Shown: piece by piece, positions 585-16,681 of the stretch | Numbering within the stretch: position 1 is the first letter of the stretch | Layout of the letters: every line of letters begins with the position of its first letter | DNA from: a virus | Lineage: Duplodnaviria; Heunggongvirae; Uroviricota; Caudoviricetes | Reading direction: 5' to 3' (one strand) | IMG/VR virus record: IMGVR_UViG_2695420411_000003 | Length of the DNA: 19,873 nt | Notes under the pieces: generated by a model | What the model was told of the DNA's origin: nothing | Database searches by the model: none | The model's input: only the letters and a program-made list of their open reading frames with translations | Made by a program: the position numbers and the translations under genes

Positions 585-589
585 GGGAT

Positions 590-1288
590 TTACTGCGAAA
601 GTTTGTTAATGGAAAGGAAGCCGCCAAAGTTGCCGACGTTATTGCGAAACTTACAGCCACTCAGGCATTTGCTGCATTTATCCTTCGTGATATCGGACGT
701 TGGCTGGTCATATTCATCCGCGACCGCCGGACCGTGATAACCGCACTCATCGCCGCGATAGGTCCAGGTGCAGGTGTTGGCCAGCATGATACGTCCCGGA
801 AAAACAGCGCCGTCCGTTTCCGTCGGCGTGGACAGTACAAAAGAGGCACTCACCGCGCTCAGTTCGCTGCACTGCTCAATGCGCCAGCGGCTGATCACCT
901 CCTGCTCCGGATCGGCGTCACTGTTTCCGTTGACGAAGTTCACCGCATCCAGAAAACGGGCGTAAACCTTACGCCGGACCACCGTTCCTCCGACCAGACT
1001 CTGCAGGTCTTCCGCCATCGCGGTGACCATGCCGTGCAGGTTAGAAACCGTCAGTGTCGGACGGGCAGCACTGCCCTTGCCGTTCAGTTCAAATCCCGTC
1101 CCCTGAATGGGATACGCCTGATACTGTCGCCCCTGCCAGGTGATCGGCTCACCTTTTTCGTTCTGCTCATTACAGAAAAAATAACGTTCTCCACCGACCA
1201 CTGTCAGATCGATTTCCCAGAGCACCACCTGGGCTGACTGAGTGAGGCGTGTCGTCTCATGATGTGTTTCCTGTGGAATATCCTGCAT
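590..1288 (-). CDS. L: Minor tail protein L (lambda gpL-like)
   Basis: 232-aa ORF MQDIPQETHHETTRLTQSAQVVLWEIDLT...GFLSINKLSQ, near-identical over long stretches to remembered lambda gpL; position between M and K. Confidence 0.9.
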   Translation of the reverse strand: MQDIPQETHHETTRLTQSAQVVLWEIDLTVVGGERYFFCNEQNEKGEPITWQGRQYQAYPIQGTGFELNGKGSAARPTLTVSNLHGMVTAMAEDLQSLVGGTVVRRKVYARFLDAVNFVNGNSDADPEQEVISRWRIEQCSELSAVSASFVLSTPTETDGAVFPGRIMLANTCTWTYRGDECGYHGPAVADEYDQPTSDITKDKCSKCLSGCKFRNNVGNFGGFLSINKLSQ

Positions 1289-1297
1289 CAGAGACTC

Positions 1298-1627
1298 CTA
1301 TGCCACGACCTGTTCAAAATCTGCCGTTATGGTTACCCACAACGCCCCCACGCTTGCCGACCATTTACGACAAACCACCCTGATCGGCTTCCAGTCATAA
1401 GGTGGCGTCCACTGAAATGCGCGGACGCCACCGTGCCGTTCCAGAAAGGCTTTTAAAGATGGGTGTTCACATTTACGAACACGTATCGTCACGCTGTAAG
1501 TCGACAACTGGTTATTCAGTCCCGCCGCACGACGCTGTTCATAACCATCGCCCAGCTTCACTGTCACCACTTTCGGCTCTGATACCACATTCATATCCGG
1601 GCGCACTTTCCAGTGAAACGTCTCCAT
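1298..1627 (-). CDS. M: Minor tail protein M (lambda gpM-like)
   Basis: 109-aa ORF METFHWKVRPDMNVVSEPKVVTVKLGDGYEQRRAAGLNNQ... resembles lambda gpM; its ATG (1625-1627) overlaps the TAA stop of the tape measure gene by 1 nt. Confidence 0.88.
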   Translation of the reverse strand: METFHWKVRPDMNVVSEPKVVTVKLGDGYEQRRAAGLNNQLSTYSVTIRVRKCEHPSLKAFLERHGGVRAFQWTPPYDWKPIRVVCRKWSASVGALWVTITADFEQVVA

Positions 1628-4600: not shown

Positions 4601-4692
4601 CCATTCAGAAGGTTTTTGATACGGGGAATTTCATTTTTAAACTCTGCCGCATCAATCCCCAAATCAATGACCAGGTTGGCTATCTGGTCCAT
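1627..4692 (-). CDS. H: Tail tape measure protein (lambda gpH-like)
   Basis: Very long ORF (track 1627..4722), Ala/Gln/Glu-rich coiled-coil-like core, Gly-rich segment, between G-T and M. Start placed at internal ATG 4690-4692 (MDQIANLVIDLGIDAAEF, compare lambda H MAEPVGDLVVDLSLDAARF) preceded by GGAGGTG; the track start at 4722 is less likely. Confidence 0.88.
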   Translation of the reverse strand: MDQIANLVIDLGIDAAEFKNEIPRIKNLLNGAASDAERSSARMQRFMERQTQAARQTTQAASSAATAASVHAQTVEKNAQAHERMAREVEKTRQRMEALSQKMREEQAQAMALAEAQDKAAAAFYRQIDSVKQASAGLQELQRIQQQIRQARNSGGIGQQDYLALISEVTAKTRVLTQAEEEATRQKVAFIRQLKEQATRQNLSSSELLRAKAAQLGVSSAAEVYIRKMEQAGKATHSLGLKSAAARQEIGVLIGELARGNLGALRGSGITLANRAGWIDTLMSPKGMMLGGVIGGIAASVYGLGKAWYDGQKEGEEFNRQLSLTGHYAGVTAGQLWTLSRAISGNGITQHAAAGVLAQVVGSGAFRGNDIGMVARAAAQMERSVGQSVSDTINQFKRLKDDPVNAAKALDNELHFLTATQLEQIRVLGDQGRSSDAARIAMSALAEETGRRTADIDNNLNALGSTLKYLSDLWSRFWDAAMNIGREDSLDEQIAALQEKVSRAKRLPWTASSSQVEYDQQRLNDLQEKKRQKDLQDAKEQAERNYQEQQKRRNAENAALNRMNETEAARHQREIARINAMQYADQAVRDAAIQRENERYEKALASGKKKTRETRNDEATRLLLQYSQQQAQVEGQIAAARQSAGIATEKMTEAHKQLLALQQRISDLDGKKLTADEKSVLARKDELIQALTLLDVKQQELQKQTALNDLKKKTIQLTSQLAEEELAQRQQHDLDIATVGMGDQQRQRYQVQLSLRQKYQQQLEQLRRDSEQKGTYNTDDYRKAEQALTESLNRQLNENRRYWQQLEVVQGNWKNGVLRAFQDFTVDADNTAGTAEQVFSSAFSNMGNGLATFVTTGKLNFKSFTSSVLSDMAKILAQATMMKSIKGIGSVLGFDLSSLSLNANGGIYQSADLSRYSGTVVNRPTFFAFAKGAGVMGEAGPEAILPLRRGADGKLGVVADIGGSGMAMFAPQYNIEINNDGTNGQIGPAALKVVYDLGKKAAADFMQQQARDGGRLSGAYR

Positions 4693-5391
4693 AACGCACA
4701 CCTCCGGAAATACCTTCCCCAAGATGCATCAGTTCTTCGTCCGTTCGCTCCGGTATCCCGTTCTCTTCCGGTAAAAGGCTGAAATCAGCCACCGCAGCAT
4801 CACTGCTGCCGGACACCATTCTCACGATCAATGCCTTCAGCGAGGCAAACTGCGCATCCATCCACACATCACTGAAGCTCTGCATCCGGAAATAATCGCC
4901 CCACTCACCAAGCTCAGTGGCCGACATTTCCGACAGCATCCGCCGCCAGTCTGCCCGCCTGAACTCCCGGGCAAGCCGCATGACAAACTGCATTTCCCGC
5001 GTCAGGACTTTTCCGGCGTCAGCACCTCATGCTCCAAATCCCCGGCATTCTCAATGGCTCCCATACCGCTCAGCGACAGAACCATCTCCGCCCCCGCTCC
5101 CAGGGCATCATACGACCATGTTGTAATAACGGATGCGCAAAGCGTCTCAACATCCTGAGACTGTTCCGCATTCCACAGTGAGCGGGAAACCAGCCAGGCA
5201 TTGATATCCATCCCCATCCGCAGAAAAGCAATCTGTCGTTCAGCCTCCGGCAGTTCTCCCTCTTCGGCATCAAACTTTGCCGTTCGCTGCTGAACAAACG
5301 CCAGATATTCAATTCTCTGCAGCCCGGACAGCTCACTGAGCACCACGGACTGCTTTTCATAATTAAACGTGCCCTGTTTCAGAAACATCAT
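4664..5391 (-). CDS. T: Tail assembly chaperone G-T fusion, inferred programmed -1 frameshift (T portion = track ORF 4664..4993)
   Basis: The T frame is offset -1 from G and stays open from a TGA about 18 nt upstream of CCGGAAAAG through to 4664. The only slippery-like element in the roughly 22-nt window where both frames are open is CCG GAA AAG (about 5008-5016). Conserved G/G-T arrangement between major tail protein and tape measure. Confidence 0.65.
5002..5391 (-). CDS. G: Tail assembly chaperone G (lambda gpG-like)
   Basis: Start at ATG 5389-5391 (MMFLKQGTFNYEKQSVVLSELSGLQRIEYLAF, compare lambda gpG MFLKTESFEHNGVTVTLSELSALQRIEHLA) preceded by GGTGGAGAAC. The track N-terminal extension to 5430 would read through the terminator hairpin and is rejected. 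Confidence 0.8.
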   Translation of the reverse strand: MMFLKQGTFNYEKQSVVLSELSGLQRIEYLAFVQQRTAKFDAEEGELPEAERQIAFLRMGMDINAWLVSRSLWNAEQSQDVETLCASVITTWSYDALGAGAEMVLSLSGMGAIENAGDLEHEVLTPEKS

Positions 5392-5404
5392 GTTCTCCAC
5401 CTGC

Positions 5405-5428
5405 AAAAAAGCCCCGGATAACCGGGGC
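5405..5428 (-). terminator. Intrinsic terminator-like hairpin between V and G
   Basis: Plus strand 5411-5428 gccccggataaccggggc is a perfect 7-bp GC stem with 4-nt loop; on the minus strand it is followed by TTTTTT (plus 5405-5410 aaaaaa). Lies between the V stop (5449) and the G start (5391). Confidence 0.6.
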
Positions 5429-5448
5429 AAATGATGAGTATCGTCCTG

Positions 5449-6192
5449 TTAACCTGCGGCGCTGACAGCCACCGCAGCCACTGCCACAAAATCGCCGTCA
5501 GAAGTCATGCCCACAATGCTGACACTGCCCTGCTTCACGCCTTTCACCGTGGCCACAAGCCCGTTCAGGGTCACCGTGGCAGTCTGTGGATCTGTCGAAT
5601 GCACACTGATCGCTTTGTCACTGGCTCCGTCAGGTTTTACTGTAAAGGTCAGCGTGGTGGTTGCTCCCACTTTTACACTGGCAGATGCCGGTGCCACCGT
5701 CAGCCCGGTAACGCTCACTGTTTCAGTGCCTTCCTCTGCCAGATACGGACGCCCCACACCGCTGATTTTCACTGTGTGGGTCATCACGTCTTTTGAGGCA
5801 ATGGTTTTACCCAGTGAGCTCAGCCAGCCACGGAAAACATCAACAGTGCCGTTGGGATATTTGATACGAAACGCGCAGACTTCACCGGAGTCGAACAACT
5901 GAACCAGTTTTTTCTGTCCGCTGTCACCCGGACGCCAGGCCAGCGTCGCCGAAGTATCACCGACGGATTTCTGCCCCTGGGTTGTCGTTTTCCAGTCTGC
6001 ATCTTCATCATCGAGATAAGTGTCATCTTCTGCATCAGCGGTCATTTCGCCAGGTTGCAGATCCTTCACCATCGCAAGACGCAGCCAGTCAGTGTCCGAT
6101 AAAGGGTTCGCAAACGCATCGCCCTTGCCGGTGTACATCCAGAACGTCGTTCCCGCACCTTTCGTTTTTGCCAGTGGATTTGGTGTGGTCAT
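5449..6192 (-). CDS. V: Major tail protein V (lambda gpV-like, with C-terminal Ig-like domain)
   Basis: MTTPNPLAKTKGAGTTFWMYTGKGDAFANPLSDTDW...NGTVDVFRGW... matches remembered lambda gpV. Start placed at ATG 6190-6192 with AAGGAGGTG 5 nt upstream; the track start at 6198 is a GTG. Confidence 0.9.
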   Translation of the reverse strand: MTTPNPLAKTKGAGTTFWMYTGKGDAFANPLSDTDWLRLAMVKDLQPGEMTADAEDDTYLDDEDADWKTTTQGQKSVGDTSATLAWRPGDSGQKKLVQLFDSGEVCAFRIKYPNGTVDVFRGWLSSLGKTIASKDVMTHTVKISGVGRPYLAEEGTETVSVTGLTVAPASASVKVGATTTLTFTVKPDGASDKAISVHSTDPQTATVTLNGLVATVKGVKQGSVSIVGMTSDGDFVAVAAVAVSAAG

Positions 6193-6203
6193 TGCCACCT
6201 CCT

Positions 6204-6605
6204 TTAATTCGTGTACGTGATCTGGTACGTGATTTCCGCCATCGCCCAGGTGGCCATCTCATTATCACGTTGATAGTTAAAACCGAGAGGGATCAGGGTG
6301 TCGATGAGTCCGGAAAGTGCCGGTATATCATTCAGAGCCGGGAAAATGGTGCTCTCCATCCACATATCCAGCTCTGAATCCGGTGCCTGTGCCCGGATGA
6401 AGACAGCAATATGCAGAACAGCCTGCCAGTCATCTTCATCCGTCATTTTTCCGGTGTACTGAGCATCACTCAGCCACACCGCCACGGCAGGCAGTTCCTG
6501 CGCATCAATAAATGCCGGAAGCCCGTCAAAAAACGTGGCGCTGTCTCCACACTGTTCCCGAAGGCGTGCCAGTACGGCCTGGCGGATTTGTGTATGTCGG
6601 TTCAT
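6204..6605 (-). CDS. U: Tail terminator protein U (lambda gpU-like)
   Basis: ORF ...ATFFDGLPAFIDAQELPAVAVWLSDAQYTG...PDSELDMWMES...IPALS...ITYQITYTN resembles lambda gpU. Start chosen at ATG 6603-6605, which overlaps the Z stop as ATGA. Confidence 0.85.
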   Translation of the reverse strand: MNRHTQIRQAVLARLREQCGDSATFFDGLPAFIDAQELPAVAVWLSDAQYTGKMTDEDDWQAVLHIAVFIRAQAPDSELDMWMESTIFPALNDIPALSGLIDTLIPLGFNYQRDNEMATWAMAEITYQITYTN

Positions 6606-7180
6606 CGGGTCAGCCATAACCTCAGTTGTTGTTTCAGTGCATACCCCAGCTGTTTCGGCATTTCCGCAGCAATGATGCGGTCGCGGGCATCTTCAAATGC
6701 CTGTGTCAGCGGTCCGGAAAGCGGGATTTTCACCACATCAATGGGGTAACGATTTTTGCCATCAATACGCCGCATCACATGCCAGCGACCATTCGCCAGT
6801 TGCTGAATAAACGCATCCCGGAAAAGATATTTACCCACCTTCAGCACACTGCCACGGTACTGCAGTTTTCCACCACGCCGGGCCAGTCTGACCCGGGCTG
6901 TCCCCAGCTTAATGGCGGGCAGATTGCCCCGGTTAACGCGGATCCTGGCCGTCATTTTTCCTGACGGACTGGCTTTAAACACCCGGACACGCTGACGTAC
7001 CAGTTTCAGGGGGATCCCTTTCACCTGGTTATCTCCCGCAACGGTATTCCCGGCAACCTGCCGGGTGGCAACCGAGACCGCTTTCTGTGCCACACGGTTT
7101 ATCGCCCATGCGCTGGCCTGTGGCACCATACGGGTATCAAGGCTGTTCAGATTGCGGATGGCATTCTCAAGCCCCTTCAT
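6602..7180 (-). CDS. Z: Head-tail joining / tail completion protein (lambda gpZ-like)
   Basis: 192-aa ORF between FII-like and U, same length and position as lambda gpZ; AGAGGTGTGGG precedes the ATG. Confidence 0.75.
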   Translation of the reverse strand: MKGLENAIRNLNSLDTRMVPQASAWAINRVAQKAVSVATRQVAGNTVAGDNQVKGIPLKLVRQRVRVFKASPSGKMTARIRVNRGNLPAIKLGTARVRLARRGGKLQYRGSVLKVGKYLFRDAFIQQLANGRWHVMRRIDGKNRYPIDVVKIPLSGPLTQAFEDARDRIIAAEMPKQLGYALKQQLRLWLTR

Positions 7181-7191
7181 CCCACACCTCT

Positions 7192-7467
7192 TTACTCAAT
7201 AAAGATCATTGGCTTACCGTTAAAACGTTCATGCCGTGTGACCGTCCATTGTTGTCCGTCATAAACAACGCGATCCCCGCGCCGTGGGCGGTATCCCGAA
7301 GAAAACACCACCAGAGAGACCGCAGGTCCGGACAGAGCATTCAGCTCTGCCAGTGTTTCGCCCGGGATCACAGCCATATCGACATCATTAATCGAGGCTG
7401 TCTTTCCCATCTTTCTGACCGTGATCGCATCCATACGCGCTGCCAGCCGGGAAAAGGGATCAGACAT
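7192..7467 (-). CDS. Head-tail connector protein (lambda gpFII-like)
   Basis: 91-aa ORF in the FII position (between head genes and Z); its ATG overlaps the last codons of the upstream gene by 8 nt. Family assignment is by position and size only. Confidence 0.6.
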   Translation of the reverse strand: MSDPFSRLAARMDAITVRKMGKTASINDVDMAVIPGETLAELNALSGPAVSLVVFSSGYRPRRGDRVVYDGQQWTVTRHERFNGKPMIFIE

Positions 7468-7793
7468 TGAGTTTTACCGGCACTTCTTCTGCACTGGTTC
7501 CGGCATCTGCCCAGACAACCCCGACCAGCGGATCAGAGCCGCTGTTAGTCAGCTGAACTTTTCCGGACTTCAGATAAACCTTCTTACCCGTTTTCATGTC
7601 ATCCGTTTTCAGTTTAGGCAGGATAAACACACCTTCGGTCATGCCGTCGCCTGTTTCACCCTGTGGAATATCGGTCAGCGCCACCGCAAAAACATCACCC
7701 ACCTGCACCAGATCTCCGCTGCTGATGGCTGCACTGGCAACAATCGCCACCGTTTTTCCTTCTTCTACAAAATTCTTTGCCATAACTGTCTCC
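7460..7793 (-). CDS. Small head-associated protein (possible decoration / head-completion protein), function unknown
   Basis: Start placed at internal ATG 7791-7793 (MAKNFVEEGKTVAIVASAAISSGDLVQVGDVFAVAL...) with GGAGA 7 nt upstream. Gly/Val-rich, about 111 aa, immediately after the major capsid gene. Not lambda gpFI-like. Confidence 0.5.
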
Positions 7794-7804
7794 GCACAGC
7801 CCCG

Positions 7805-7858
7805 TTCAGGGGCTGATTTCAGGTACAAAAAAAGCCCTTACGGGCCATCAGAGTTGTT
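7805..7858 (-). terminator. Tandem stem-loops after the major capsid gene, one terminator-like
   Basis: Minus-strand RNA: GGCCC-GUAA-GGGCU followed by UUUUUUU (plus 7837-7856), then a second 6-bp stem AGCCCC-UGAAC-GGGGCU (plus 7808-7826) without a U-tract. Both lie between the capsid stop (7870) and the next gene's RBS. Confidence 0.5.
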
Positions 7859-7869
7859 GTCTGCGACGT

Positions 7870-9879
7870 TTACGCCGTACATTTCACCAGACCGCGGTGA
7901 TCAACTGGCGCGACACCGGCGTCAATACGCACTTTCGTTGTCACGCCATCCACACTGAAGCCCTCCATCTGATCAATATATGGCGTATCCACACCGTTGA
8001 GATAAGCCACTTCAATCGTATCGGAGCCTTTTGACGCAGCCAGGTAGAAGGTGGTCTGGCTGTTATCATCAAGACGAGGCTCTGCAATAACGGTCGCAAA
8101 ATCTTTCACCGGGTTAATAATACCGGCGTTAATGTCAGCCCCCTTGACACTTGAGGAGCGAATGACCTGGTTAGCAACAGACTCCATCGCCGTCGGTACC
8201 AGTACGAACGCAGGACGAATATTCAGATGACGCTCCCCCTCTTTCTGAACGCGCATCAACTGGCGGGCTTTATCCAGCGATGCCACGTCCATTGCAGCGC
8301 TCTCCAGTACGTTTGCATGTTTCGCTTTATCGAACAGACTTACATTATCTGTGGAGATTTTCGGGTTAGACGTCAGAATGGCATAAACCAGATCGGCAAT
8401 AGTGGATTTCGCCGCACGGCCCAGTTTCATCGGGACATCGGTCAGCATATTCAGATCATCATTGATAATGGCCTGACGGGTGATACTGAACAGCTCGCCA
8501 TAGGTCGCCAGTGCAATAGTGGCCTGTTTATCTCCGGTGGTGACGTATTTATATTCCGCCCCTTCACGCACCTGACGCAGAGCACTGAAGCCACCCATAC
8601 CCACACGATGGGCAATTTTAAAATCAGACAACTGACCTTTCCGCGTCCACTGTTCATAGGTTTCAGGGGCATCTTCCCAGCCCTGCAGAATGGCTTTGTT
8701 CGCAACATCCAGCAGAATATTACCGAAGTCAGACGTACTGTGTGTGAACGCCGCACCGACCATCTGCATCGGGTTATAACTGGAAACCCCAATACCCCGT
8801 TCAGTCAGTGACATACGGGCATATTCACGCAGGGTCATCCCGTTGTAGACATTATCACGTTCGGTTTTTTCAAATCCGGCACGCGCCATCAGCGCCTGGC
8901 GGATCCCGTCCCCCACAAAATTACCGTTACCGGCATAAATATGAGCCGGGGTATTTTTATTGGATGGCGTGGACTCGCGCCCCATCTCGTTCAACAGCTT
9001 TTCGCGGGCCTGCTCCAGCGAACATTCAGGATCGGCAAGACACTGAGCCTGCAGCGTCTGATAACGCCCGCCAAACATGGCAAACAGATCATTAATACCG
9101 TTTACACGCGCTTTTTGCTCTGCCAGTACCTGCGCACGGATGCTGTTTTCATCCACCACGGGTGCTGCTGCCTGCACTGGCGTCCGGGAGGCTTCAGGTT
9201 CATTATCCTGTACGCGTGGAGCACTGTTGCGTGGCGGAGTAATCATGTTTCGAATGGATTCCGGCATCTTTTTAAATTCCTCTGTACGTTTTGACTGAAT
9301 ACATGCCATTGCCTTAACGGCTGGCGTTACCTGATCAGCAAATCCATGTGCCAGACATTCGGCACCGGACATCCAGGTCTCATCCGCCAGCATGGCAGCA
9401 ATTTCATCGGTGGTTTTCCCGGTTTTCTGTGCATAAGCGGGTAACAGAACCGCCTCAACTTTATCGAGCAGGTCGGCATAGGTGCGCATGTCCTCCGCAT
9501 CACCGCCCGTAAAGCCAAATGGTTTATGAATCATCATGAAGGTGTTTTCCGGCATAATGACCGGGTTTCCCACCATCGCAATGACCGACGCCATTGACGC
9601 CGCCACACCGTCGACATAAACGGTAATGGACGCACCATGTGTTTTCAGCGCATTAAAAATGGCGATGCCTTCAAAGACATCGCCACCCGGTGAATTAATA
9701 TGGAGATTAATGTGGGTGATATCGCCCAGTGCATTCAGATCACTGATAAACTGCTTCGCTGTAACACCCCAGAAACCAATCTCGTCATAAATATAAATAT
9801 CCGCGTCACTCTGGTGACCAGCCTGCATCCTGAACCAGGAATTATTCTTCGGACTGGTCGTCGGTGTGCTGCGGCTCAT
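7870..9879 (-). CDS. Prohead protease (ClpP/S14-like) fused to HK97-fold major capsid protein
   Basis: N-terminal part ...DIYIYDEIGFWGVTAKQF...INSPGGDVFEGIAIFNALK...MASVIAMVGNPVIMPENTFMMIHKP... looks like a ClpP-family serine protease; the C-terminal roughly 340 aa look like an HK97-type capsid protein. Start is uncertain: ATG 9877-9879 overlaps the portal by 38 nt, alternative ATG 9826-9828 lies 13 nt after the portal stop. The track start at 10089 is rejected because it reads deep into the portal. Confidence 0.8.
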   Translation of the reverse strand: MSRSTPTTSPKNNSWFRMQAGHQSDADIYIYDEIGFWGVTAKQFISDLNALGDITHINLHINSPGGDVFEGIAIFNALKTHGASITVYVDGVAASMASVIAMVGNPVIMPENTFMMIHKPFGFTGGDAEDMRTYADLLDKVEAVLLPAYAQKTGKTTDEIAAMLADETWMSGAECLAHGFADQVTPAVKAMACIQSKRTEEFKKMPESIRNMITPPRNSAPRVQDNEPEASRTPVQAAAPVVDENSIRAQVLAEQKARVNGINDLFAMFGGRYQTLQAQCLADPECSLEQAREKLLNEMGRESTPSNKNTPAHIYAGNGNFVGDGIRQALMARAGFEKTERDNVYNGMTLREYARMSLTERGIGVSSYNPMQMVGAAFTHSTSDFGNILLDVANKAILQGWEDAPETYEQWTRKGQLSDFKIAHRVGMGGFSALRQVREGAEYKYVTTGDKQATIALATYGELFSITRQAIINDDLNMLTDVPMKLGRAAKSTIADLVYAILTSNPKISTDNVSLFDKAKHANVLESAAMDVASLDKARQLMRVQKEGERHLNIRPAFVLVPTAMESVANQVIRSSSVKGADINAGIINPVKDFATVIAEPRLDDNSQTTFYLAASKGSDTIEVAYLNGVDTPYIDQMEGFSVDGVTTKVRIDAGVAPVDHRGLVKCTA

Positions 9880-11350
9880 GTCGTTTCGTTGCGGCACTGC
9901 TGCCTCCTTTATCACTGGCCGGATCGGTATCAAATACCAGATCCAGCTTGCGGTTTTCATCAATTTCGGCCTTGCGCCGACGTTTGACATCATCCGGATT
10001 ACGACCACCAGCACGTACCCAGTCTGATTCTGTCGCCGCTCCACCACGAATCTGGATTTTCCAGGCCTCAGCCTCCTTAACAGGGTCAATCCACGGCATC
10101 ACCGGTCCGGAATACACCGCGGTATACAGTGAAGAACGGTCAAGATCGCGGGGTAGCCTGATAACACCGGATGCCACAGCCTGTTTCAGCCAGGCACGAT
10201 ACATCGGACGGGTGACGGCACCAATAAACCAGTCCTGCAGGATCAGGTAGCCATCAGTGGATTCAACCAGCTCCTGACGCTGGGCGCTGTAAGTGCCGTT
10301 ATAGTTGCGCGCTGTACTGGAAAAACTCAGACGACTGCCCGCCGCCACGGCACGCAACTGACCATTACGAAAAGTTTCAAGGTTAGGATTGGGGCGATCC
10401 GACTTCACCATTCCGATTTCTTCGCCGGGTTTCAGATCATCGTAAATAATGCCTGGCTGAATGGTAAGCTCGCGTTCCTTATCCTTGCTGCCATTACCAT
10501 CCGCTTCATAGCTCTGCCCGTCGCCTTTCCGGATGTACATCCCCAGAGCAGCGGCGATCCTTGCTGCAGTCAGCTCAGAATCTTCATACTCTTTCAGAGC
10601 ACTGAGGCGGATCAGCACACCGGACAATAAAGACGTCCCGCGCATCTGGTGCAGACGGCGAACAAATTTAAGATGCAGCATTCGCTCTGCATCCACTTCT
10701 TTGGTTTCCATCTGCCGTCCGGATACGGGACGGCTTTTATACACCAGATATTTTTCGGGACGCCCCCAGTCATCAACAAACACGCCCTGATTCAGCCTGT
10801 TGCTCTCATCACTGGTCATGGGAATAAAGTCCGGCTCGAGCGCCTCCAGCCAGAAATGAACACCGGCAGAAGGCGTCAGGCTGTTTATGCGCCCGGAAAC
10901 CATCTGGGCAAACACCTCACCATCGCGCAGCCAGGTACGAAGCATCAGACGTTCCAGCATCGGACGGGTAAACTGCCCGGTGACTTCCGGGCTGACAGAC
11001 CATTCACTCCATCGGGTGCGAATCTCCGCAGCCAGGTCACGGGCAATGGCCCCATTGCGTAATACCGGATGTGGCTCGACAATAATCCCGTTTTTCCCCA
11101 CCACCCGTTCTTCCAGCTTGTCAAATACACCAATAACCAGATCGTGGTTGTTATCAAGGTAACGGGCCTGCTCACGTAACGACACGGCCCCGTACTGGCT
11201 TAACTGGTCGGCAGTTCGGTTCTCCCGTCGGGCTTTGTGTGTCCGCGTCGTTTTTACGGCCTCATAAGCCTGGATCACCGCACGGGAACGCAGCCTTGCC
11301 GCTTTCCATCCTGGTGAAAAAACGCCAATCACATCATCAAGAATTGCCAT
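9842..11350 (-). CDS. Portal protein
   Basis: About 500-aa ORF between gpW and the capsid gene. Start placed at ATG 11348-11350 (MAILDDVIGVF...), which overlaps the W stop (TGATG). The track extension to 11422 would overlap W. Does not resemble remembered lambda gpB in sequence; assignment is by size, position and acidic C-terminus. Confidence 0.8.
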   Translation of the reverse strand: MAILDDVIGVFSPGWKAARLRSRAVIQAYEAVKTTRTHKARRENRTADQLSQYGAVSLREQARYLDNNHDLVIGVFDKLEERVVGKNGIIVEPHPVLRNGAIARDLAAEIRTRWSEWSVSPEVTGQFTRPMLERLMLRTWLRDGEVFAQMVSGRINSLTPSAGVHFWLEALEPDFIPMTSDESNRLNQGVFVDDWGRPEKYLVYKSRPVSGRQMETKEVDAERMLHLKFVRRLHQMRGTSLLSGVLIRLSALKEYEDSELTAARIAAALGMYIRKGDGQSYEADGNGSKDKERELTIQPGIIYDDLKPGEEIGMVKSDRPNPNLETFRNGQLRAVAAGSRLSFSSTARNYNGTYSAQRQELVESTDGYLILQDWFIGAVTRPMYRAWLKQAVASGVIRLPRDLDRSSLYTAVYSGPVMPWIDPVKEAEAWKIQIRGGAATESDWVRAGGRNPDDVKRRRKAEIDENRKLDLVFDTDPASDKGGSSAATKRHEPQHTDDQSEE

Positions 11351-11562
11351 CAGAACCTCGCCAGCCGATACCCGGGATGCCCCCGTCGTCGTGTAATCAG
11401 AGCCGCAAGGCGGCGCTCCCACTCCTGCCGTCCCTGCCGGATCTCAGATAAGTTTTCCATGGTCATCTGCTGACCATTAAAGGTGACGGATTTTCCGTCC
11501 AGCACCGCCATTTCAGCTTCCGTATAACGCTGAATCATGGCTTCGATATCATTCTGGTTCAT
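11350..11562 (-). CDS. W: Head-tail joining protein (lambda gpW-like)
   Basis: About 70 aa, ends ...ALITRRRGHPGYRLARF (compare lambda gpW ...RRRGPAGFYV). Start at ATG 11560-11562, overlapping the terminase stop as ATGA, with GGAGG 6 nt upstream. Confidence 0.75.
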   Translation of the reverse strand: MNQNDIEAMIQRYTEAEMAVLDGKSVTFNGQQMTMENLSEIRQGRQEWERRLAALITRRRGHPGYRLARF

Positions 11563-13658
11563 AACCATCCTCCGGAAGTCAGCCAGGGGTTAACATCGTC
11601 AGTTACTGTTTTCTTCCGTTTTTGTTTTTTAACAGGCGTGGATACCGGTTCCGGTGAGGATGACGGTTCGGTACTGTCCGGGACACACTCCAGCCAGGTT
11701 TCCCGGCTCGCCCACTCCGGTGCATCCGGCCAGCGGATCTTTTCGTATCCATGCAGAATGACCAGAGCCTCGGCATACACCATCAGGTCAAAAGCTTCGT
11801 TGGCACCGCGACCCGGCTTACTCCATTTCCCGTCACTGCTCCGCTCTTCATACGTCAGTTCGTCGTAAAACCAGCTCCCCAGCCAGTCAGGGAAATGCAC
11901 ATAGCCGGGACCTGGCGAGTCACGCCATAACGCGTTATTCACCCGGTCTTTCAGTGCATCCGTCTGAAGAAGCCAGAGCGGCACATCACCTGCGGCCTGC
12001 GCCCGTCGGCCCGTTCGTCCGGTGTTATCAGGGAATGTACGGGTGATCAGTTTTGCGCGCCGGATGCTGTCGCCCTTAAACAGGTAAATACGTTTACCAA
12101 GGCCATCACGACGGCAACGACGCCAGAATTTATAGGCATTATCAGTGACCCCGTCTTCACCGCCGGAGTCCACCGCCATTGCCATCAGTCGCATTTGTTG
12201 AGAAGGATCGGAGGCCAGCGGCCAGCTTTTATGAAAAACATCCGTCAGCAGGACATCCCAGTCTTCCGGATAGCTGGCCGGATCAATTCGCTGGCTCTCC
12301 CCGTCGCTGTCACCGCGCAATGACTGCGTGATGTTGTAACGATCAATAATCCAGCGTTCGCCACGGCTGCCATAGCCCGTTACCTGAACCACAAAACGGC
12401 GATGACGTCCCGCCTGCACATCCACTGTCGCCACAAGAAAATTAACGCCATCCGGCACACTGCGGGAAGGAACTGGCTCTGCCCGCTGCTCAAGCAGTTC
12501 ACTTTTTCGTTGCTCCATGCTGGCGCGGGGAAGATAAGGTAATCCCCAGTCGGTGTTGATAACCGCCCTGAGTGTTTCTTCACTTCCTGTCGCTTCATAC
12601 TCCTGTTCTGCAGTCAGTAATTTGTAAACCAGTTGCGCCCAGGTCTGATACGCAGCAGCTGGCCCTTCCATCCAGAAACTGGCGATACGGGAGCGGCGCG
12701 GTTCACCGGAAACGTTGCCGTTACAATCAATGACCTGACCTTCACGCAACCAGACTCCTGCACTATTGAGCTCACGCTTTTTCTCCGCCGTGATAATGCC
12801 GCTGCAGTGCGGGCAAAGTAGATACGCCGCCTCACTGGCTTTAAAGGGATCCGGTTCATTACGGTAGCCGGTCATGGCATCCATGGCTGGCTGAAAATAT
12901 TCACCGCAGTGCGGACATGGCCAGTACCAGCGGCGGCGGTCACCACGATTGTAAAGGGAAAGAATACCAGTCGTCGGTGGCGCTTCATGAGGCGACTTAC
13001 GTCGCCATTTGCTGTCGCAGATGTCACGTCCCGGCGAGCTCTCCACCAGAGTCATCCCGGCGGACATAAATGTGGTGGTACGTTTTGAGGCCAGGGAGAA
13101 ACCATCACCCTCGCTGTCGATATTCTCCGGAAAACGGTCGTAATCGGTTAAGGCGACAAACCGGTAATCCGACGACGACATAATGTTGACCGAGGGCCAA
13201 CCAATTTTAAGGAACGAGCCATCCCTGAACGTCTTATCATGGACATTATTGTCATTACGACGTGGACTCATTCTTTTCTTTACCGCCGCACTGCTTCTGA
13301 ACGTTCTGTCGAGGCGCTTTTTTGAATGCTCGCGGGCCTTATCTTCGGTCATCTGCACAACGAGCATGTCCGAAGGATCGCAAACGATGGTATAGACAAT
13401 CCATCCATCGATCAGACCAATGGTCTTCCCTGTTCGCGCAGGACCAACAAAAATCACCGCATCGTATTCACGCGATGCCAGGCAGTTCATGGGCTCAATG
13501 ATGTAGGGTGTCAGTTCAGGATCCCATGGCACCGAGTTACCAGCCCCCTTGGGAACACGCATGAATTTTTTAACAGCCTCCGAAATCGGCATGCGACGTG
13601 GTGGGGAAAATCCTGCCGATATGTCCCTTCCCAAATTTCGGGCTGATGAAAAACCCAT
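11559..13658 (-). CDS. Terminase large subunit (lambda gpA family)
   Basis: 699-aa ORF with Walker A-like VGPARTGKT, paired cysteines CPHCGEY...CPHCSG, and an acidic nuclease-like C-terminal half; GAGGAATA precedes the ATG; directly downstream of the small subunit. Confidence 0.88.
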   Translation of the reverse strand: MGFSSARNLGRDISAGFSPPRRMPISEAVKKFMRVPKGAGNSVPWDPELTPYIIEPMNCLASREYDAVIFVGPARTGKTIGLIDGWIVYTIVCDPSDMLVVQMTEDKAREHSKKRLDRTFRSSAAVKKRMSPRRNDNNVHDKTFRDGSFLKIGWPSVNIMSSSDYRFVALTDYDRFPENIDSEGDGFSLASKRTTTFMSAGMTLVESSPGRDICDSKWRRKSPHEAPPTTGILSLYNRGDRRRWYWPCPHCGEYFQPAMDAMTGYRNEPDPFKASEAAYLLCPHCSGIITAEKKRELNSAGVWLREGQVIDCNGNVSGEPRRSRIASFWMEGPAAAYQTWAQLVYKLLTAEQEYEATGSEETLRAVINTDWGLPYLPRASMEQRKSELLEQRAEPVPSRSVPDGVNFLVATVDVQAGRHRRFVVQVTGYGSRGERWIIDRYNITQSLRGDSDGESQRIDPASYPEDWDVLLTDVFHKSWPLASDPSQQMRLMAMAVDSGGEDGVTDNAYKFWRRCRRDGLGKRIYLFKGDSIRRAKLITRTFPDNTGRTGRRAQAAGDVPLWLLQTDALKDRVNNALWRDSPGPGYVHFPDWLGSWFYDELTYEERSSDGKWSKPGRGANEAFDLMVYAEALVILHGYEKIRWPDAPEWASRETWLECVPDSTEPSSSPEPVSTPVKKQKRKKTVTDDVNPWLTSGGWL

Positions 13659-13666
13659 TATTCCTC

Positions 13667-14194
13667 CTAGAGACTCTCTCCTTCCTCATCAGGAATTAAT
13701 TCAGCAGCACAAGCCTCGTAGGATTTTTCCTGAAGAGTGTATCGCAGGTCATCAATGGCCTGCTGTACAACGCCAACGGCCTGAGGAGTCAGGGCGCAAT
13801 CGCGTTCAAGAACATCCGGAATTGTCTCCAGAACCTGGACGACAGCCTTTCTCATGGACGAATAGACGATGACTACTTCATCAACGGGGATGAGTTTTCG
13901 CTGCTCCTTTTCCAGCTTGATCCTTTCATTTTCCGACTGGTACCAGTCCTTTCTCTCTTTCGGCTCCATACGGGATGGATCATGAACAGAGTCTGCTGCC
14001 TCATGCTTCACACTAAACAGGGCAGGCCCGACATGCTGCAGGGCGTAAACGGGGTTCCCCCTGACAGTCGCAGCCACAGGAGTGTTGGCCGCGAGGAGCC
14101 GTTTTTTTACTGTGTCCCAGTGAAGCCCAAAGGCCTCGGCGATTTTAAAAACACTCCAGTAATAAGCATCACCGATCCCGCTCACATTTGACAT
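13667..14194 (-). CDS. Terminase small subunit (lambda Nu1 / Noh-like)
   Basis: Start at internal ATG 14192-14194 (MSNVSGIGDAYYWSVFKIAEAFGLHWDTVKKRL, a winged-HTH-like N-terminus resembling Nu1) with GGAG 6 nt upstream; immediately upstream of the large subunit and about 200 bp from the cos candidate, as in lambda. Confidence 0.8.
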   Translation of the reverse strand: MSNVSGIGDAYYWSVFKIAEAFGLHWDTVKKRLLAANTPVAATVRGNPVYALQHVGPALFSVKHEAADSVHDPSRMEPKERKDWYQSENERIKLEKEQRKLIPVDEVVIVYSSMRKAVVQVLETIPDVLERDCALTPQAVGVVQQAIDDLRYTLQEKSYEACAAELIPDEEGESL

Positions 14195-14359
14195 AAGCAA
14201 CTCCATCTGGCAGGTGAAAATCAGGTTTATTTATATATTTCAATTAATTGCAAACTAGTCTAATGACAGGGAGAAAAAAATATTGTACAGCTGAAAAGAG
14301 AAATAACTTTTAATTATCAATAAATTACCAAACATGCTGCCGCCGCCATGGAAATGCAA

Positions 14360-14395
14360 AAACTAGCCTTTTTCCGCGACGCTCCCGCCCCGTGG
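14360..14395 (-). other. Candidate cosN cohesive-end site
   Basis: Minus-strand sequence ACGGGGCGGGAGCGTCGCGGAAAAAGG resembles remembered lambda cosN ACGGGGCGGCGACCTCGCGGGTTTTCG, and lies about 200 bp upstream of the small terminase start (lambda: about 190 bp). The AT-rich stretch 14207-14330 between them is where cosB/IHF sites would be. Confidence 0.45.
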
Positions 14396-14756
14396 CAGGG
14401 ACCCCCACTGGGAGGACCCGACAGCCTGACAACCGTGACGAGCATCTGAAACAGAGCTTTACATAATGGCATGGGGATAATTCAGAAGGACATCACAGCA
14501 TGCCCACACAAATTAGTGTGAGTGTCCTGTTTCTTACTACGCGCAGGACTGACGAGCATGAGGGGAAAATACGAGAACCGAAATGCCTTATCTTCAGAAA
14601 TGCAGCCGGCATCCGAACTGGACGATATTGTAAATTCACCTAAATACGAGGCATTGCTGTAGTTGAATTGCATTGCTGTATTAGCCTGACAGTGACAGAA
14701 TACGATATTGACTCTGTCACTTGTGAAATGGTCAGAATGGTTAGCAGTTATGGTGA

Positions 14757-14963
14757 TCAGTCAACCACCAGGGAATAATCCTTCGTATTCTTATCGTGCT
14801 TTACTAACGCGGCCTCAATTGCCCTGAATGCTTCCAGAGACACTTGATGTTCTATACATGCAATTACAACATCCGGGTAACCCATCGAAATGGTGCTATT
14901 AAGCATAGTTTTTACACGAACCTGCTCCTGGGAGGGGGCATCAGTGTATTGATCTTTATGCAT
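14757..14963 (-). CDS. Hypothetical small protein (moron), 68 aa
   Basis: [44 protein letters not shown]... with GGAG 8 nt upstream of the ATG; protein-like composition in an AT-rich block. No family recognised. Confidence 0.45.
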
Positions 14964-15165
14964 TTTGTCGCTCCATGCGTTTGCTCTTCACTTACGGCTA
15001 AAAATATAACGTCAAATCACTCAGCATGAAAGAGTTAAAGATTCAGCGCGTTTCCCTTACATAATCTGTCGTTTGTATTCTCTTCAGGCATACCGGAAAG
15101 ACTAGGTATTGTCACACAACCAATACCATCGACAATCGAGATTTATACCTATTCGGTAATGTTTA

Positions 15166-15196
15166 AATATAACAAAACCCCGTAAAAACGAGGTTT
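15166..15196 (-). terminator. Terminator-like hairpin downstream of the GnsA/GnsB-family gene
   Basis: Minus-strand RNA AACCUCG-UUUUUA-CGGGGUU (7-bp stem including one G-U pair) followed by UUUGUUAUAU. Confidence 0.45.
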
Positions 15197-15256
15197 ATGG
15201 GTAATTTGTATTGTTGAATAGCATCTGATGAGAAATTGATGCTAATACTAAACAGA

Positions 15257-15430
15257 CTAGATTAAATCAATCTTGATATCATAGCTTTCAAGACCAGTCA
15301 TTTTTTCCCGTGCAGTAAACTGGATACTGGTAACTTCTTTCCCGGTCTTTTTCTTAAGCTCAATGATTTTTTTTGTTATATATTCAGAAATATCTGCTTC
15401 TGTTTTTGTTTTTAACTCTTCAATGTTCAT
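15257..15430 (-). CDS. GnsA/GnsB-family small protein
   Basis: MMNIEELKTKTEADISEYITKKIIELKKKTGKEVTSIQFTAREKMTGLESYDIKIDLI closely resembles remembered E. coli GnsA; AGAGGA directly upstream. The track N-terminal extension is rejected. Confidence 0.8.
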   Translation of the reverse strand: MNIEELKTKTEADISEYITKKIIELKKKTGKEVTSIQFTAREKMTGLESYDIKIDLI

Positions 15431-15602
15431 CATTTCCTCTTTTAGTCTGTTATGACTTTCCTGGTACACAGTAGTGTCAATTATATGGAGCAAACGTATA
15501 AAAGATAAGATGAAACATCGCAATAATCAACATACGACGGTCTAAATTTCACACAAACAGATAAAGATGATTATCATTTATTATCAATGCATTAGAATCA
15601 AA

Positions 15603-15794
15603 TCAATTCAAGAGTCTCATTGCTGCTTCCAGAATTTCTTCTGAAGTTACATGTCGATCCGCTGCTACATAAATGACTTTATGATCTCCGGTCAGAGATG
15701 GAAACCCTGCAGCCATTACAGTGAGGTGTGTTGTTTCGCCATTTGGATATTCACGCATGATGGTGTTAACTCCGGTCATCACTGGCACTACCAT
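15603..15794 (-). CDS. Hypothetical small protein upstream of the gns gene (possible YnfN/YmcE-like)
   Basis: 63-aa ORF, protein-like composition, co-oriented and adjacent to the gns gene as ymcE/gnsA and ynfN/gnsB are in E. coli K-12 (from memory). Start codon uncertain; no strong RBS found. Confidence 0.35.
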   Translation of the reverse strand: MVVPVMTGVNTIMREYPNGETTHLTVMAAGFPSLTGDHKVIYVAADRHVTSEEILEAAMRLLN

Positions 15795-15878
15795 TGCTGG
15801 TTCAGAGTTAAAAAAAACTATTATTTTTTTTCATAATGTTACCGTAATATGTGAGTATCCATCGACTAGACACTAAGC

Positions 15879-15900
15879 AAAAAAGCTCCCGAAGGAGCCT
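15879..15900 (-). terminator. Intrinsic terminator downstream of the csp gene and small Cys-rich ORF
   Basis: Minus-strand RNA GGAGC-UUCG-GGAGC (5-bp stem, UUCG tetraloop) followed by UUUUUU (plus 15879-15884 aaaaaa); begins 7 nt after the stop of ORF 15907..16161. Confidence 0.55.
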
Positions 15901-15906
15901 TCATTT

Positions 15907-16122
15907 TCACTTTCTTAAATCTAACGATAGACGGCTAACATTTAAGTATTGTGAAATATTATCAAATGTAATCATCATTGATTTACAAAAGATACATTTT
16001 GCCCCGAAAGGATTCCTGTCAGAAACATCAAAAGATGATGTTCTATACTGAGAACCATGGCAACACGGGCATCTAAAGTGAATATGGTTTGTAATATTTT
16101 CTACCTCAAAGTGCCACAACAT
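15907..16122 (-). CDS. Hypothetical small Cys-rich (zinc-ribbon-like) protein
   Basis: Motif HFRCPCCHG...(about 20 aa)...CIFCKS. An ORF of this length is unexpected in AT-rich DNA, and its stop is immediately followed by the terminator. Against it: no clear RBS, and the first ATG (16120-16122) overlaps the csp 3' end by 17 nt; the track start at 16161 is a TTG. Confidence 0.35.
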
Positions 16123-16321
16123 GAACAGCCGCGGGGCCTTTAGGTCCGTTCTCAATACCAAATTCGACTTCCTGATTCTCAGTTAACGTTTTGAAATCGT
16201 TGCTCTGAATAGCTGAGAAATGGACAAACACATCTTTGCTACCATCTTTCGGCGTGATGAAACCAAAACCTTTTTCAGGGTTAAACCATTTCACTAAACC
16301 AGTCATTTTGTTAGACATCAT
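16106..16321 (-). CDS. CspA-family cold-shock protein
   Basis: [69 protein letters not shown] with RNP motifs KGFGFI and VFVHF; true start is probably the second ATG (16316-16318). A roughly 360-bp AT-rich upstream region is consistent with the long 5' UTR typical of csp genes. Confidence 0.9.
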
Positions 16322-16681
16322 TATTACCTTTTGAAGAAGTTAGCCCTTGGGCAGAATGGTCCGAAAAAAAATATCAGAGAGAAAAACCAACAAGGAAATC
16401 TCAAGAGGTACAAATAATAAAATTATAACAATGACTGCTTCAGATAATTTTGTAACAAACCAGAACACCATTAACGCATGATTAACCAACCATAGCAAGG
16501 ATTACTTTTGTAAAGAAAAACACACGAATGAAACAATAGCTTTATTTATTAATAAAACGTGTCATTCTGTCTAATGACCTTTTATCTTACCCTTAAGATT
16601 TCAAGGATTTTGACTCATGGAAGAGTCCTTTTTATTTAAATTTCACATTCAGCGCTAAAAATAATCCGATTTAATATTAAT

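Follow-up and report, generated by a model that had tools for sequence, protein, structure and literature searches.

Gene content and base composition of the block

The window, that is, the whole stretch of 19,873 nucleotides that was analyzed, contains a 2.3-kb block between the stop codon of the Rz gene (16682) and a lambda-like cosN site (~14390), in which all the small genes lie on the minus strand and are co-oriented with the late genes. Judged by sequence, these genes are cspI, ynfQ, a cut-short ynfR, ynfN, gnsB and ybcW, every one of which is already named in K-12. The features of the block, in the direction of the late genes, are:

16470..16498, minus strand: putative cspI promoter, TTGCTA (16498-16493), 17-nt spacer, GTTAAT (16475-16470), from sequence reading
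16060..16476, minus strand: cspA-type thermoregulator mRNA, long 5' UTR and csp coding region
16106..16318, minus strand: cspI, cold-shock protein, 70 aa
15907..16095, minus strand: ynfQ, 62-aa four-Cys small protein (CPCC...CxxC), YmcF family
15866..15904, minus strand: ynfR remnant, 12 codons followed by TAG (sequence and alignment)
15878..15902, minus strand: intrinsic terminator after cspI-ynfQ, GGCTCC-TTCG-GGAGC and T6 (fold and conservation)
15603..15834, minus strand: ynfN, disrupted (alignment of 11 loci, PHROG 3425, homologues and allele counts)
15480..15530, minus strand: promoter-like block 5' of gnsB, TTGATT-17-TATCTT (15530-15502) and a perfect TATAAT (15485-15480)
15257..15430, minus strand: gnsB, 57 aa, GnsA/GnsB family (ORF from 15523)
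15165..15196, minus strand: intrinsic terminator after gnsB, 9-bp stem (15196-15175) and T-rich tail (terminator scan and fold)
14757..14963, minus strand: ybcW homologue, 68 aa, the last gene before cos
14692..14720, minus strand: hairpin after ybcW, 8-bp stem, 13-nt loop, no U-tract (fold)
14379..14390, minus strand: probable cosN cohesive-end sequence, GGGCGGGAGCGT

The sequence-only reading of this DNA had described AT-rich, co-oriented genes between Rz and cos, and this description holds: all of its ORFs are present on the minus strand where it placed them, and the GC content is 37.2% for positions 14757-16321 versus 53.8% for bases 1-14206. Across the block, GC ranges from 31 to 44%, versus 54% in the structural genes, and the 1565-bp segments with the lowest GC in the entire 19.9-kb window coincide with the block. 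The codon-usage comparison with the flanking genes that had been proposed along with it points the same way, with GC3 values of 0.27-0.40 for cspI, ynfQ, ynfN and gnsB versus 0.52-0.56 for the endolysin and terminase genes; the value for Rz is 0.38.

A terminator scan of the block detected 4 terminator-like sites versus 1.3 +/- 1.3 expected. A consensus promoter scan yielded 6 sites versus 8.8 expected, and neither the putative cspI promoter nor that of gnsB is among them; the promoter assignments therefore rest on sequence reading, conservation and published RNA-seq data. Between conserved phage genes, the block carries a cspA-type leader and two terminators of its own, together with promoters recognized by eye, and its base composition (GC and GC3) is unlike that of the neighboring phage genes, as is typical of morons; lambda and DLP12 have no csp-gns cassette at the same site.

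The cspI-ynfQ unit

CspI is identical to K-12 CspI at 70 of 70 positions and consists of a single cold-shock domain of ~70 aa (Pfam CSD, E = 1.7e-31, residues 6-70); there is an additional in-frame ATG at 16321, and PGAP names the gene cspI in near-identical genomes. The K-12 gene is induced on temperature downshift. The leader and coding region match the full Rfam model RF01766 (positions 1-428; 109.8 bits versus a gathering score of 78; E = 2.3e-28). The putative promoter, which would give a 5' UTR of ~145 nt, resembles the cspA promoter (TTGCAT/CTTAAT). PADLOC returned for CspI a generic cold-shock-domain match alone (CSD_V, E = 3.4e-15), and the NCBIfam model of the retron Se72 effector scored 49.9 bits versus a cut-off of 82; both were read as family resemblance and not as a defense gene or system.

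The start codon of ynfQ is an ATT at 16095, located 10 nt past the cspI stop and 8 nt after a GAGG; an 84-aa form of this Cys-rich ORF, with a TTG start at 16161, was rejected. The product, a zinc-ribbon-like small protein, is identical to K-12 YnfQ at 59 of 62 positions and belongs to the Pfam YmcF-like family (PF23641, E = 1.5e-32, residues 23-83 of the 84-aa ORF). The gene is annotated either as ynfQ or as "cold shock small protein YmcF", and a YmcF/YnfQ gene follows csp by 10 nt in 15 of 15 genome loci.

The terminator after cspI-ynfQ (-14.5 kcal/mol, z = -2.69) retains its stem and T-run, with a variable loop, in Escherichia, in Citrobacter and in the cspG-ymcF locus. The ynfR reading frame crosses this hairpin; the 12-codon form seen in the window, compared with 21 aa in K-12 YnfR, is present in 51 of 87 loci. 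It has been published that YnfR-SPA rises strongly upon cold shock; a search of the literature for cold induction of YmcF/YnfQ found this YnfR result alone.

A disrupted ynfN next to an intact gnsB

Full-length members of the YnfN family comprise 76 aa and begin with MKKIIVFFNSEP. In the window, a run of eight A (15831-15824) replaces A7, and the frame stops at 15810-15808, after 8 codons; the intact remainder is a 63-aa ORF from the ATG at 15794 (15794-15603) and no more, which matches positions 14-76 of the 76-aa PHROG 3425 profile. Thus, the window encodes neither the full 76 aa nor the N-terminal strand MKK(I/V)IVFFN; the missing residues correspond to strand 1 of the predicted sheet in a structure prediction. 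The window protein is identical to K-12 YnfN at 48 of 51 positions. Frameshifted ynfN was found in 15 of 87 loci, the window and K-12 included, and goes back to two independent slips (A8 in the window versus T7 in K-12 Qin). Some of these homopolymer frameshifts could be sequencing errors, and the shortened YnfN, of 63 or 51 aa, might still be made and active.

By comparison, all 87 loci have an intact gnsB that encodes 57 aa. Its product is identical to K-12 GnsB at 53 of 57 positions (4 substitutions) and to GnsA at 36 of 57, spans positions 1-54 of the 54 in the Pfam GnsA/GnsB profile PF08178 (E = 7.9e-33) and matches the solved GnsA structures 4XO1 and 4XO2 (E = 8e-20). As cited in later papers, overexpressed K-12 GnsA and GnsB increase the content of unsaturated fatty acids and rescue cold-sensitive secG, fabA6 and relA fadR defects; a role of GnsB in cold adaptation is thus suggested, by homology, by the overexpression phenotypes of its K-12 homologues.

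The two genes are separated by a 172-nt spacer that holds the promoter-like block; each gns gene is preceded by a conserved version of the TTGATTATTG block, and this holds for gnsA and for the loci that have no ynfN as well. The terminator downstream of gnsB folds with -11.0 kcal/mol (z = -2.43). A candidate Fur box in the spacer (TGATAATAAATGATAATCAT) was rejected, because it differs from the 19-bp consensus at more than 3 positions and is missing from the K-12 and Tritos alleles.

ybcW and the cos site

The last ORF, of 68 aa, had been counted among the acquired morons; instead, it is YbcW, which occupies the same position in lambda. It is 79% identical to YbcW of the K-12 prophage DLP12 (E = 3e-40), as also to the lambda protein, and matches PHROG 657 (E = 4.6e-48); searches of Pfam, NCBIfam and PDB gave no match. 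At the DNA level, positions 14612-15079 of the window are 83% identical to lambda 47629-48090 over 468 nt. The hairpin that follows belongs to a structure with a folding energy of -22.6 kcal/mol (z = -2.79) and was not called by the terminator scan; it is stable but has no U-tract and so does not look like a terminator. Of the hairpins with which the sequence-only reading had closed each of at least three transcription units, those after the Cys-rich ORF and after gns are retained as terminators.

A cos site had been placed beyond the block, and the phage records agree: those of Tritos and cdtI open exactly at window position 14390 with GGGCGGGAGCGTCGCGG, and 14391 is the last position of the Tritos record. 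The cosN candidate of the window resembles lambda cosN, GGGCGGCGACCT.

Related loci in prophages, phages and bacterial chromosomes

The proposed likeness to the K-12 prophage Qin (cspI, ynfN and gnsB next to rzpQ) proved exact. In addition to the CspI, YnfQ, YnfN and GnsB identities given above, RzpQ is identical at 149 of 165 positions and RzoQ at 80 of 84, and the Qin segment rzpQ-cspI-ynfQ-ynfR-ynfN-gnsB (b1553-b1550) has the same genes, order, strand and spacing as the window. Downstream, the two diverge: Qin continues with two opposite-strand genes, ydfO and ynfO, followed by nohA, whereas the window continues with ybcW and an intact cos and terminase and is therefore probably part of a complete prophage.

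The phages Tritos (of E. coli LF82), cdtI, mEp460, 2H10 and HannyBb share with the window an identical Rz-cspI-ynfQ-ynfN-gnsB-ybcW right end (92-99.5% DNA identity), to which Tritos and cdtI add a common cos and terminase (99%). Unlike the window, Tritos has an intact ynfN and an additional opposite-strand ybcV/ydfO-like gene that separates gnsB from ybcW; in mEp460, the cos/terminase module past window position 14351 is a different one. In lambda and DLP12 (Rz-bor-ybcV-ybcW-cos), ybcW is likewise the final late-strand ORF before cos, but bor and the opposite-strand ybcV take the place of the csp-gns cassette.

A paralogous cassette is the E. coli cspG-ymcF-ymcE-gnsA locus, which includes a csp gene, a YmcF-family gene 10 nt further on, the same terminator hairpin and a gns gene; the window proteins are identical to CspG at 55 of 70, to YmcF at 42 of 62 and to GnsA at 36 of 57 positions. 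Unlike the window, this locus has no Rz-like gene upstream and contains, between the terminator and gns, ymcE, a gene unrelated to ynfN that overlaps gnsA by 11 nt, has a reading frame crossing the terminator and is broken in other Escherichia.

A search of complete E. coli genomes found this gene order in 1050 of them (at least 80% coverage), and about a fifth of the complete genomes of this species have the block at full length; the isolated phages HannyBb, mEp460, 2H10, PhiR63_1 and Tritos have this order as well. Among 80 gns loci in IMG/VR, the arrangement Rz>cspI>ynfQ>ynfR>ynfN>gnsB is complete in 78, and the other two lack the upstream part. Across 15 species-level gns loci, csp and ymcF/ynfQ are the only invariant neighbors. 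The YnfN family is small and confined to Escherichia and Citrobacter; in one Citrobacter locus (L017), tblastn matched neither ynfN nor ymcE in the sequence upstream of gns, and in another (L015), it matched only a 40-aa ymcE-like fragment.

Expression in the Tritos lysogen

The published transcriptome of the E. coli LF82 Tritos lysogen, in which genes of this block are listed as morons, was obtained at 37 C with no cold shock and from a phage 92% identical to this prophage. In these data, cspI stands 93-fold over the prophage background, whereas Rz and the endolysin gene remain at background level. A 174-nt gene at 1610202-1610375, which we identify as gnsB because of its length and spacing, is 27-fold over background. 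The ynfN mRNA follows that of cspI (r = 0.91) at a level 3-5 log2 units below, whereas the gnsB mRNA does not track cspI (r = 0.07) and amounts to 2.6-72 times the ynfN mRNA, with a correlation of 0.38 between the two. Together with the conserved spacer block, these mRNA levels indicate that ynfN and gnsB, previously taken as one transcription unit, are probably transcribed separately.

Function of the block: the competing explanations

The region is, with high probability, the standard right-end accessory block of an E. coli lambdoid prophage of the Qin/Tritos/cdtI type, in which a cold-adaptation moron cassette precedes the conserved lambdoid gene ybcW; the cold-shock block that many lambda-like prophages of E. 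coli carry at their right ends is already known. Three other explanations have to be weighed against this one.

The small ORF and gns had been suggested to form a pair of the YmcE/GnsA toxin-antitoxin kind; such a type II (addiction) pair, YnfN/GnsB, would stabilize the prophage. The idea has a basis in annotation, given that Pfam names the family "GnsA/GnsB toxin", PGAP labels gnsB "addiction module toxin" and several papers, with reference to Wei et al. 2015, assign ymcE-gnsA to type II. A published survey found the partners of the GnsA/GnsB domain always upstream, and ynfN is located upstream of gnsB on the same strand, with both proteins being small; the locus thus shares with type II operons such as relBE and yefM-yoeB two small adjacent same-strand genes in a mobile element and a "toxin"-labelled downstream family. 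However, the upstream gene is no homologue of the proposed antitoxin: BLASTP gave no alignment of YnfN with YmcE at E <= 100, and YmcE is absent from the top local alignments. Unlike relBE and yefM-yoeB, the two genes neither overlap nor abut, show no translational coupling and have separate putative promoters, one of them in the 172-nt gap; the upstream gene is variable or broken; and the mRNA of the supposed toxin was in large excess in the Tritos lysogen, which is healthy. An antitoxin would have to be intact wherever its toxin is, but gnsB is whole at all 87 loci, including the 15 with a frameshifted ynfN, and one Citrobacter gns lacks any upstream tblastn match to either proposed partner. 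The model pair fares no better, since ymcE is itself disrupted in three Escherichia genomes (L019-L021) that keep an intact gnsA, and GnsA and GnsB have repeatedly been found as multicopy suppressors that rescue growth. A toxin-antitoxin pair of YnfN and GnsB is not supported, and we consider it highly improbable.

Could the block serve the phage instead, with CspI acting as antiterminator and RNA chaperone and GnsB as modifier of membrane lipids, so that late expression and holin/spanin lysis keep working in the cold? Csp proteins are transcription antiterminators and RNA chaperones, GnsA and GnsB alter membrane lipid composition, and nearly all of the 80 viral contigs, like the isolated phages, have the block on the late strand immediately behind the lysis cassette. 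However, lambda and many lambdoid phages carry bor/ybcV instead of the cassette, which is therefore dispensable for lytic growth; the cassette genes have promoters and terminators of their own and are highly expressed in uninduced lysogens in which the neighboring lysis genes are silent; and the same cassette, in the form cspG-ymcF-gnsA, also occurs where there is no Rz-like gene upstream. A phage-serving role thus appears unlikely, although it is compatible with the cold-adaptation cassette and the two are not exclusive. That the small ORFs are merely decaying, non-functional remnants in AT-rich filler next to cos is hardly credible: ynfN and ynfR are indeed interrupted in the window, the YnfN family is tiny, and YnfN, YnfQ and YbcW are without known function, but cspI, ynfQ, gnsB and ybcW are whole and highly conserved, the cassette has been kept into Citrobacter with divergence mostly at synonymous positions, and its genes are strongly transcribed in the Tritos lysogen.

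Under the preferred explanation, a cold-adaptation moron cassette, the genes of the block would be expressed in the lysogen from their own promoters, with no involvement of the phage repressor. In the cold, the cspI-ynfQ mRNA would accumulate by means of its leader, a few percent of the transcripts would pass the terminator into ynfR/ynfN, and gnsB would be transcribed separately; by homology with K-12 GnsA and GnsB, its product may shift membrane lipids to unsaturated fatty acids and so help the cells to grow in the cold. In the lytic cycle, the Q-antiterminated late transcript would also cover the entire block, given its late-strand position between Rz and cos.

A broader reading that joins these lines is offered tentatively, as a possibility. 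Under this scenario, a mobile cold cassette, composed of csp with its thermosensing leader, the ymcF/ynfQ zinc-ribbon gene, a leaky terminator and gns, would move back and forth between the chromosome and lambdoid phages, with ymcE, ynfR and perhaps ynfN as dispensable passengers, and the "YmcE-GnsA toxin-antitoxin system" would be a mis-annotation. GnsA/GnsB would then be the membrane arm and Csp the RNA arm of the response, perhaps coupled in that Csp lets transcription pass the conserved terminator at low temperature.

As a discovery, the block carries little weight: its genes are named in K-12 and it has already been reported as the moron region of Tritos. The value of the analysis is corrective. 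The label "addiction module toxin" on gnsB gives no ground for inferring a toxin-antitoxin pair with ynfN here, and the YmcE-GnsA toxin-antitoxin claim, which has been copied between databases, is likewise made less convincing by the comparison of loci. If the block is indeed a cold cassette, lambdoid prophages would pass a ready-to-use module for fitness at low temperature from one enterobacterium to another, which would bear on the survival of these bacteria outside the host.

Organization of the gene block

In this part of the window, every gene is carried by the minus strand, and the block cspI-ynfQ-ynfR-ynfN-gnsB-ybcW lies between Rz and cos.

Features in order of transcription, starting with the endolysin gene
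17709-17176, minus, endolysin
17179-16682, minus, Rz with embedded Rz1
about 360 nt, AT-rich leader 5' of the csp gene
16318-16106, minus, csp gene (cspI)
16095-15907, minus, Cys-rich small gene (ynfQ)
15902-15878, minus, hairpin and T6, 3' of the Cys-rich gene
15794-15603, minus, YnfN-like ORF
172 nt, spacer from the YnfN-like ORF to the gns gene
15430-15257, minus, gns gene (gnsB)
15196-15165, minus, second hairpin with T-tract, after gns
14963-14757, minus, 68-aa ORF (ybcW)
around 14390, GC-rich cos region
14206-13667, minus, terminase small subunit
13658-11559, minus, terminase large subunit

The GC content of the block region is 37.2% (31% to 44% for single genes) compared to 53.8% in bases 1-14206, and the lowest-GC 1565-bp windows of the entire sequence coincide with this region. 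Third-position GC is likewise lower in cspI, ynfQ, ynfN and gnsB (0.27-0.40) than in the endolysin and terminase genes (0.52-0.56), with Rz at 0.38. A terminator scan detected 4 terminator-like sites versus 1.3 +/- 1.3 expected; both T-tract hairpins fold well (-14.5 and -11.0 kcal/mol, z about -2.5), and the hairpin 3' of the 68-aa ORF is stable and lacks a U-tract. Strand, composition and terminator results thus confirm the description of co-oriented, AT-rich genes with hairpins in the sequence-only reading. Another terminator-like hairpin (16612-16627, plus strand; GACTC-6-GAGTC, then T-rich), located between Rz and the putative cspI promoter, faces against the late genes, and there is no nearby plus-strand gene that would need it.

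The records of phages Tritos (a prophage of E. coli LF82) and cdtI start at window position 14390 with GGGCGGGAGCGTCGCGG, which closely resembles lambda cosN; therefore, the placement of the block between Rz and cos is correct. At 14379-14391, GGGCGGGAGCGT followed by CGCGG forms a lambda-like cosN where both records begin and end, so that the window spans the joined cos of the prophage. Mosaic joints are found at 14351, 14612 and 15079: lambda homology is limited to 14612-15079, mEp460 homology stops at 14351, just past cos, and Tritos and cdtI homology runs on through the terminase genes, the small terminase being of the DUF1441 type.

Gene identities and distribution

Comparison with the small prophage proteins of E. 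coli K-12 bore out the resemblance described in the sequence-only reading. The csp product is identical to CspI (70/70), and the Rfam model of the cspA thermoregulator matches the csp leader together with the coding region at 109.8 bits (gathering score, 78 bits). The Cys-rich ORF is YnfQ (59/62 identical; Pfam YmcF-like, E = 1.5e-32), the 63-aa ORF corresponds to YnfN (48/51), and the gns product is GnsB (53/57), with matches to PF08178 and to the solved GnsA structure (E = 8e-20). The 68-aa ORF is YbcW, 79% to the protein of the cryptic prophage DLP12, with no match among the compared genes of the K-12 cryptic prophage Qin; it lies within 468 nt of DNA with 83% identity to lambda 47629-48090, where lambda has its final late-strand ORF ahead of cos. 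Around the ynfQ start (16093-16108), the only in-frame ATG, GTG or TTG before the Cys motif is the ATG at 16122, inside cspI; the K-12 annotation starts ynfQ at an ATT (16095), 8 nt after GAGG, as in the paralogue ymcF, and such a start beside a cold-shock gene may be regulatory.

Of 5426 complete E. coli genomes, 1050 contain the 2.9-kb stretch at a coverage of 80% or more, and PGAP assigns the names rzpQ, cspI, ynfQ, ynfN and gnsB there. Identity of the stretch to the right ends of isolated phages (HannyBb, mEp460, 2H10, PhiR63_1 and Tritos) is 92-99.5%. As a feature, the block is not new; a widespread gene block, already annotated and partly characterized, is present here as a near-identical copy.

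Members of the YnfN family have 76 aa and share a conserved N-terminal strand, MKK(I/V)IVFFN. In the window (15834-15808), ynfN contains A8 (15831-15824) instead of A7 just 3' of the start codon, which brings in a stop after 8 codons and leaves an ORF for residues 14-76 only; T8 is at 15817-15810. These two adjacent homopolymers slip recurrently: ynfN is intact (A7/T8) in 72 of the 87 loci, 10 show a T7 slip and 5, including the window, an A8 slip. The T7 loci include Qin of K-12 MG1655, and accordingly, the annotated 51-aa YnfN is a remnant.

Are ynfN and gnsB a toxin-antitoxin pair?

The notion that YmcE and GnsA form a type II toxin-antitoxin pair is passed on in papers and in Pfam/PGAP names, and the sequence-only reading extended it to the small ORF and gns gene of the block. 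Six results, on similarity, spacing, frameshifts, neighbours, mRNA and fold, go against this extension, which we consider highly improbable. BLASTP and local alignment detected no similarity between YnfN and YmcE. The ynfN and gnsB genes are separated by 172 nt, whereas ymcE overlaps gnsA by 11 nt; the spacer includes a block, TTGATTATTG..., that is conserved ahead of all gns genes, irrespective of what precedes it, and is accompanied by a perfect TATAAT in the Qin type. Frameshifts affect ynfN in 15 of the 87 loci, including the window and K-12, whereas all 87 carry gnsB intact, at 57 aa; a truncated YnfN could, nevertheless, still be active. The YnfN model is confident (pLDDT 86.5; five strands and one helix), and structure comparison suggests no resemblance of this predicted structure to any solved fold, those of antitoxins included.

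In each of 15 species-level loci (Escherichia, Shigella and Citrobacter), csp and ymcF/ynfQ precede gns, but the gene in between varies: ynfN in 10, a ymcE-like ORF in 4 (a 40-aa fragment in L015), and a match to neither in the remaining locus (L017). The ymcE gene (K-12 locus L003, 2848-3078) is damaged in genomes that keep gnsA (compared at L019 2790-3008 and L020 and L021 2782-3008): in E. whittamii and Escherichia sp. E1V33 it carries a frameshift, and in another E. coli its start codon is gone and a stop has arisen, and gnsA in these genomes is intact and 91-98% conserved. Both YmcE, in its N-terminal part (IRLPRGAFF), and YnfR (KAPSGAFL) arise by reading across the conserved cspG-ymcF terminator hairpin, which explains the (A/L)P(S/R)GAF peptide that they share. 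The csp-ymcF-(ynfN)-gns cassette is also present in Citrobacter spp., at least once right after an Rz-like gene (L013); there, the terminator stem is kept and the loop is TTAT instead of TTCG.

In the Tritos lysogen, gnsB mRNA exceeds ynfN mRNA 2.6-72-fold in 10 of 10 samples; gnsB is independent of cspI (r = 0.07), and ynfN tracks cspI (r = 0.91) at a level 3-5 log2 units below it, the pattern expected of terminator read-through. Furthermore, in the literature consulted, plasmids carrying GnsA or GnsB restore growth and increase unsaturated fatty acids instead of killing the cells.

A probable cold-response moron

By the usual definition, the block qualifies as a moron: it has its own leader and terminators, differs in base composition from the phage genes beside it, and is absent from lambda and DLP12, where bor and ybcV occupy that site; ybcW is conserved in both. 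In the Tritos lysogen (E. coli LF82) grown in LB, cspI is expressed 93-fold above the prophage background, and Rz and endolysin are at background (PMC9928086). The second moron in Table 1 of that study, LF82_0907 (27-fold above background), is labelled 'YnfN' but is gnsB by its coordinates (1610202-1610375; Tritos locus L005, 3269-3442), 174-nt length and neighbour spacing; the larger table labels it GnsB, and the product labels of the S1 sheet are off by one row compared to that table and the GenBank record. According to the supplementary tables of the same study, ybcW (LF82_2580) is near background in LB and about 30-fold up in DMEM and macrophages (log2 about 5 in LB to about 10 in macrophages), and therefore behaves as a condition-dependent moron.

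What is established here is the identity of the genes, their synteny, the cspA-type leader, the pair of terminators and expression in the related lysogen; the scheme that follows is inferred. Genes cspI and ynfQ would form one cold-inducible unit, probably transcribed from TTGCTA-17-GTTAAT (16498-16470, minus strand) with a leader of some 145 nt. Read-through of the terminator may carry a few percent of the transcripts into ynfR and ynfN, which fits the published cold induction of YnfR-SPA. Separate units would be formed by gnsB and ybcW. By homology, GnsB would shift lipids towards unsaturated fatty acids, so that the cassette would pair RNA-level with membrane-level aid to cold growth. Given the position of the block, ahead of cos and on the late strand, it would also be read by Q-antiterminated late transcription, and it is possible that the phage itself gains from the block at low temperature.

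The by-products of this analysis do not make the finding surprising. Annotators may, however, profit from them: YnfN is truly 76 aa long and subject to recurrent homopolymer frameshifts, ymcE is in decay, csp, ymcF and gns are invariantly linked, and labels are shifted in the moron table as published.
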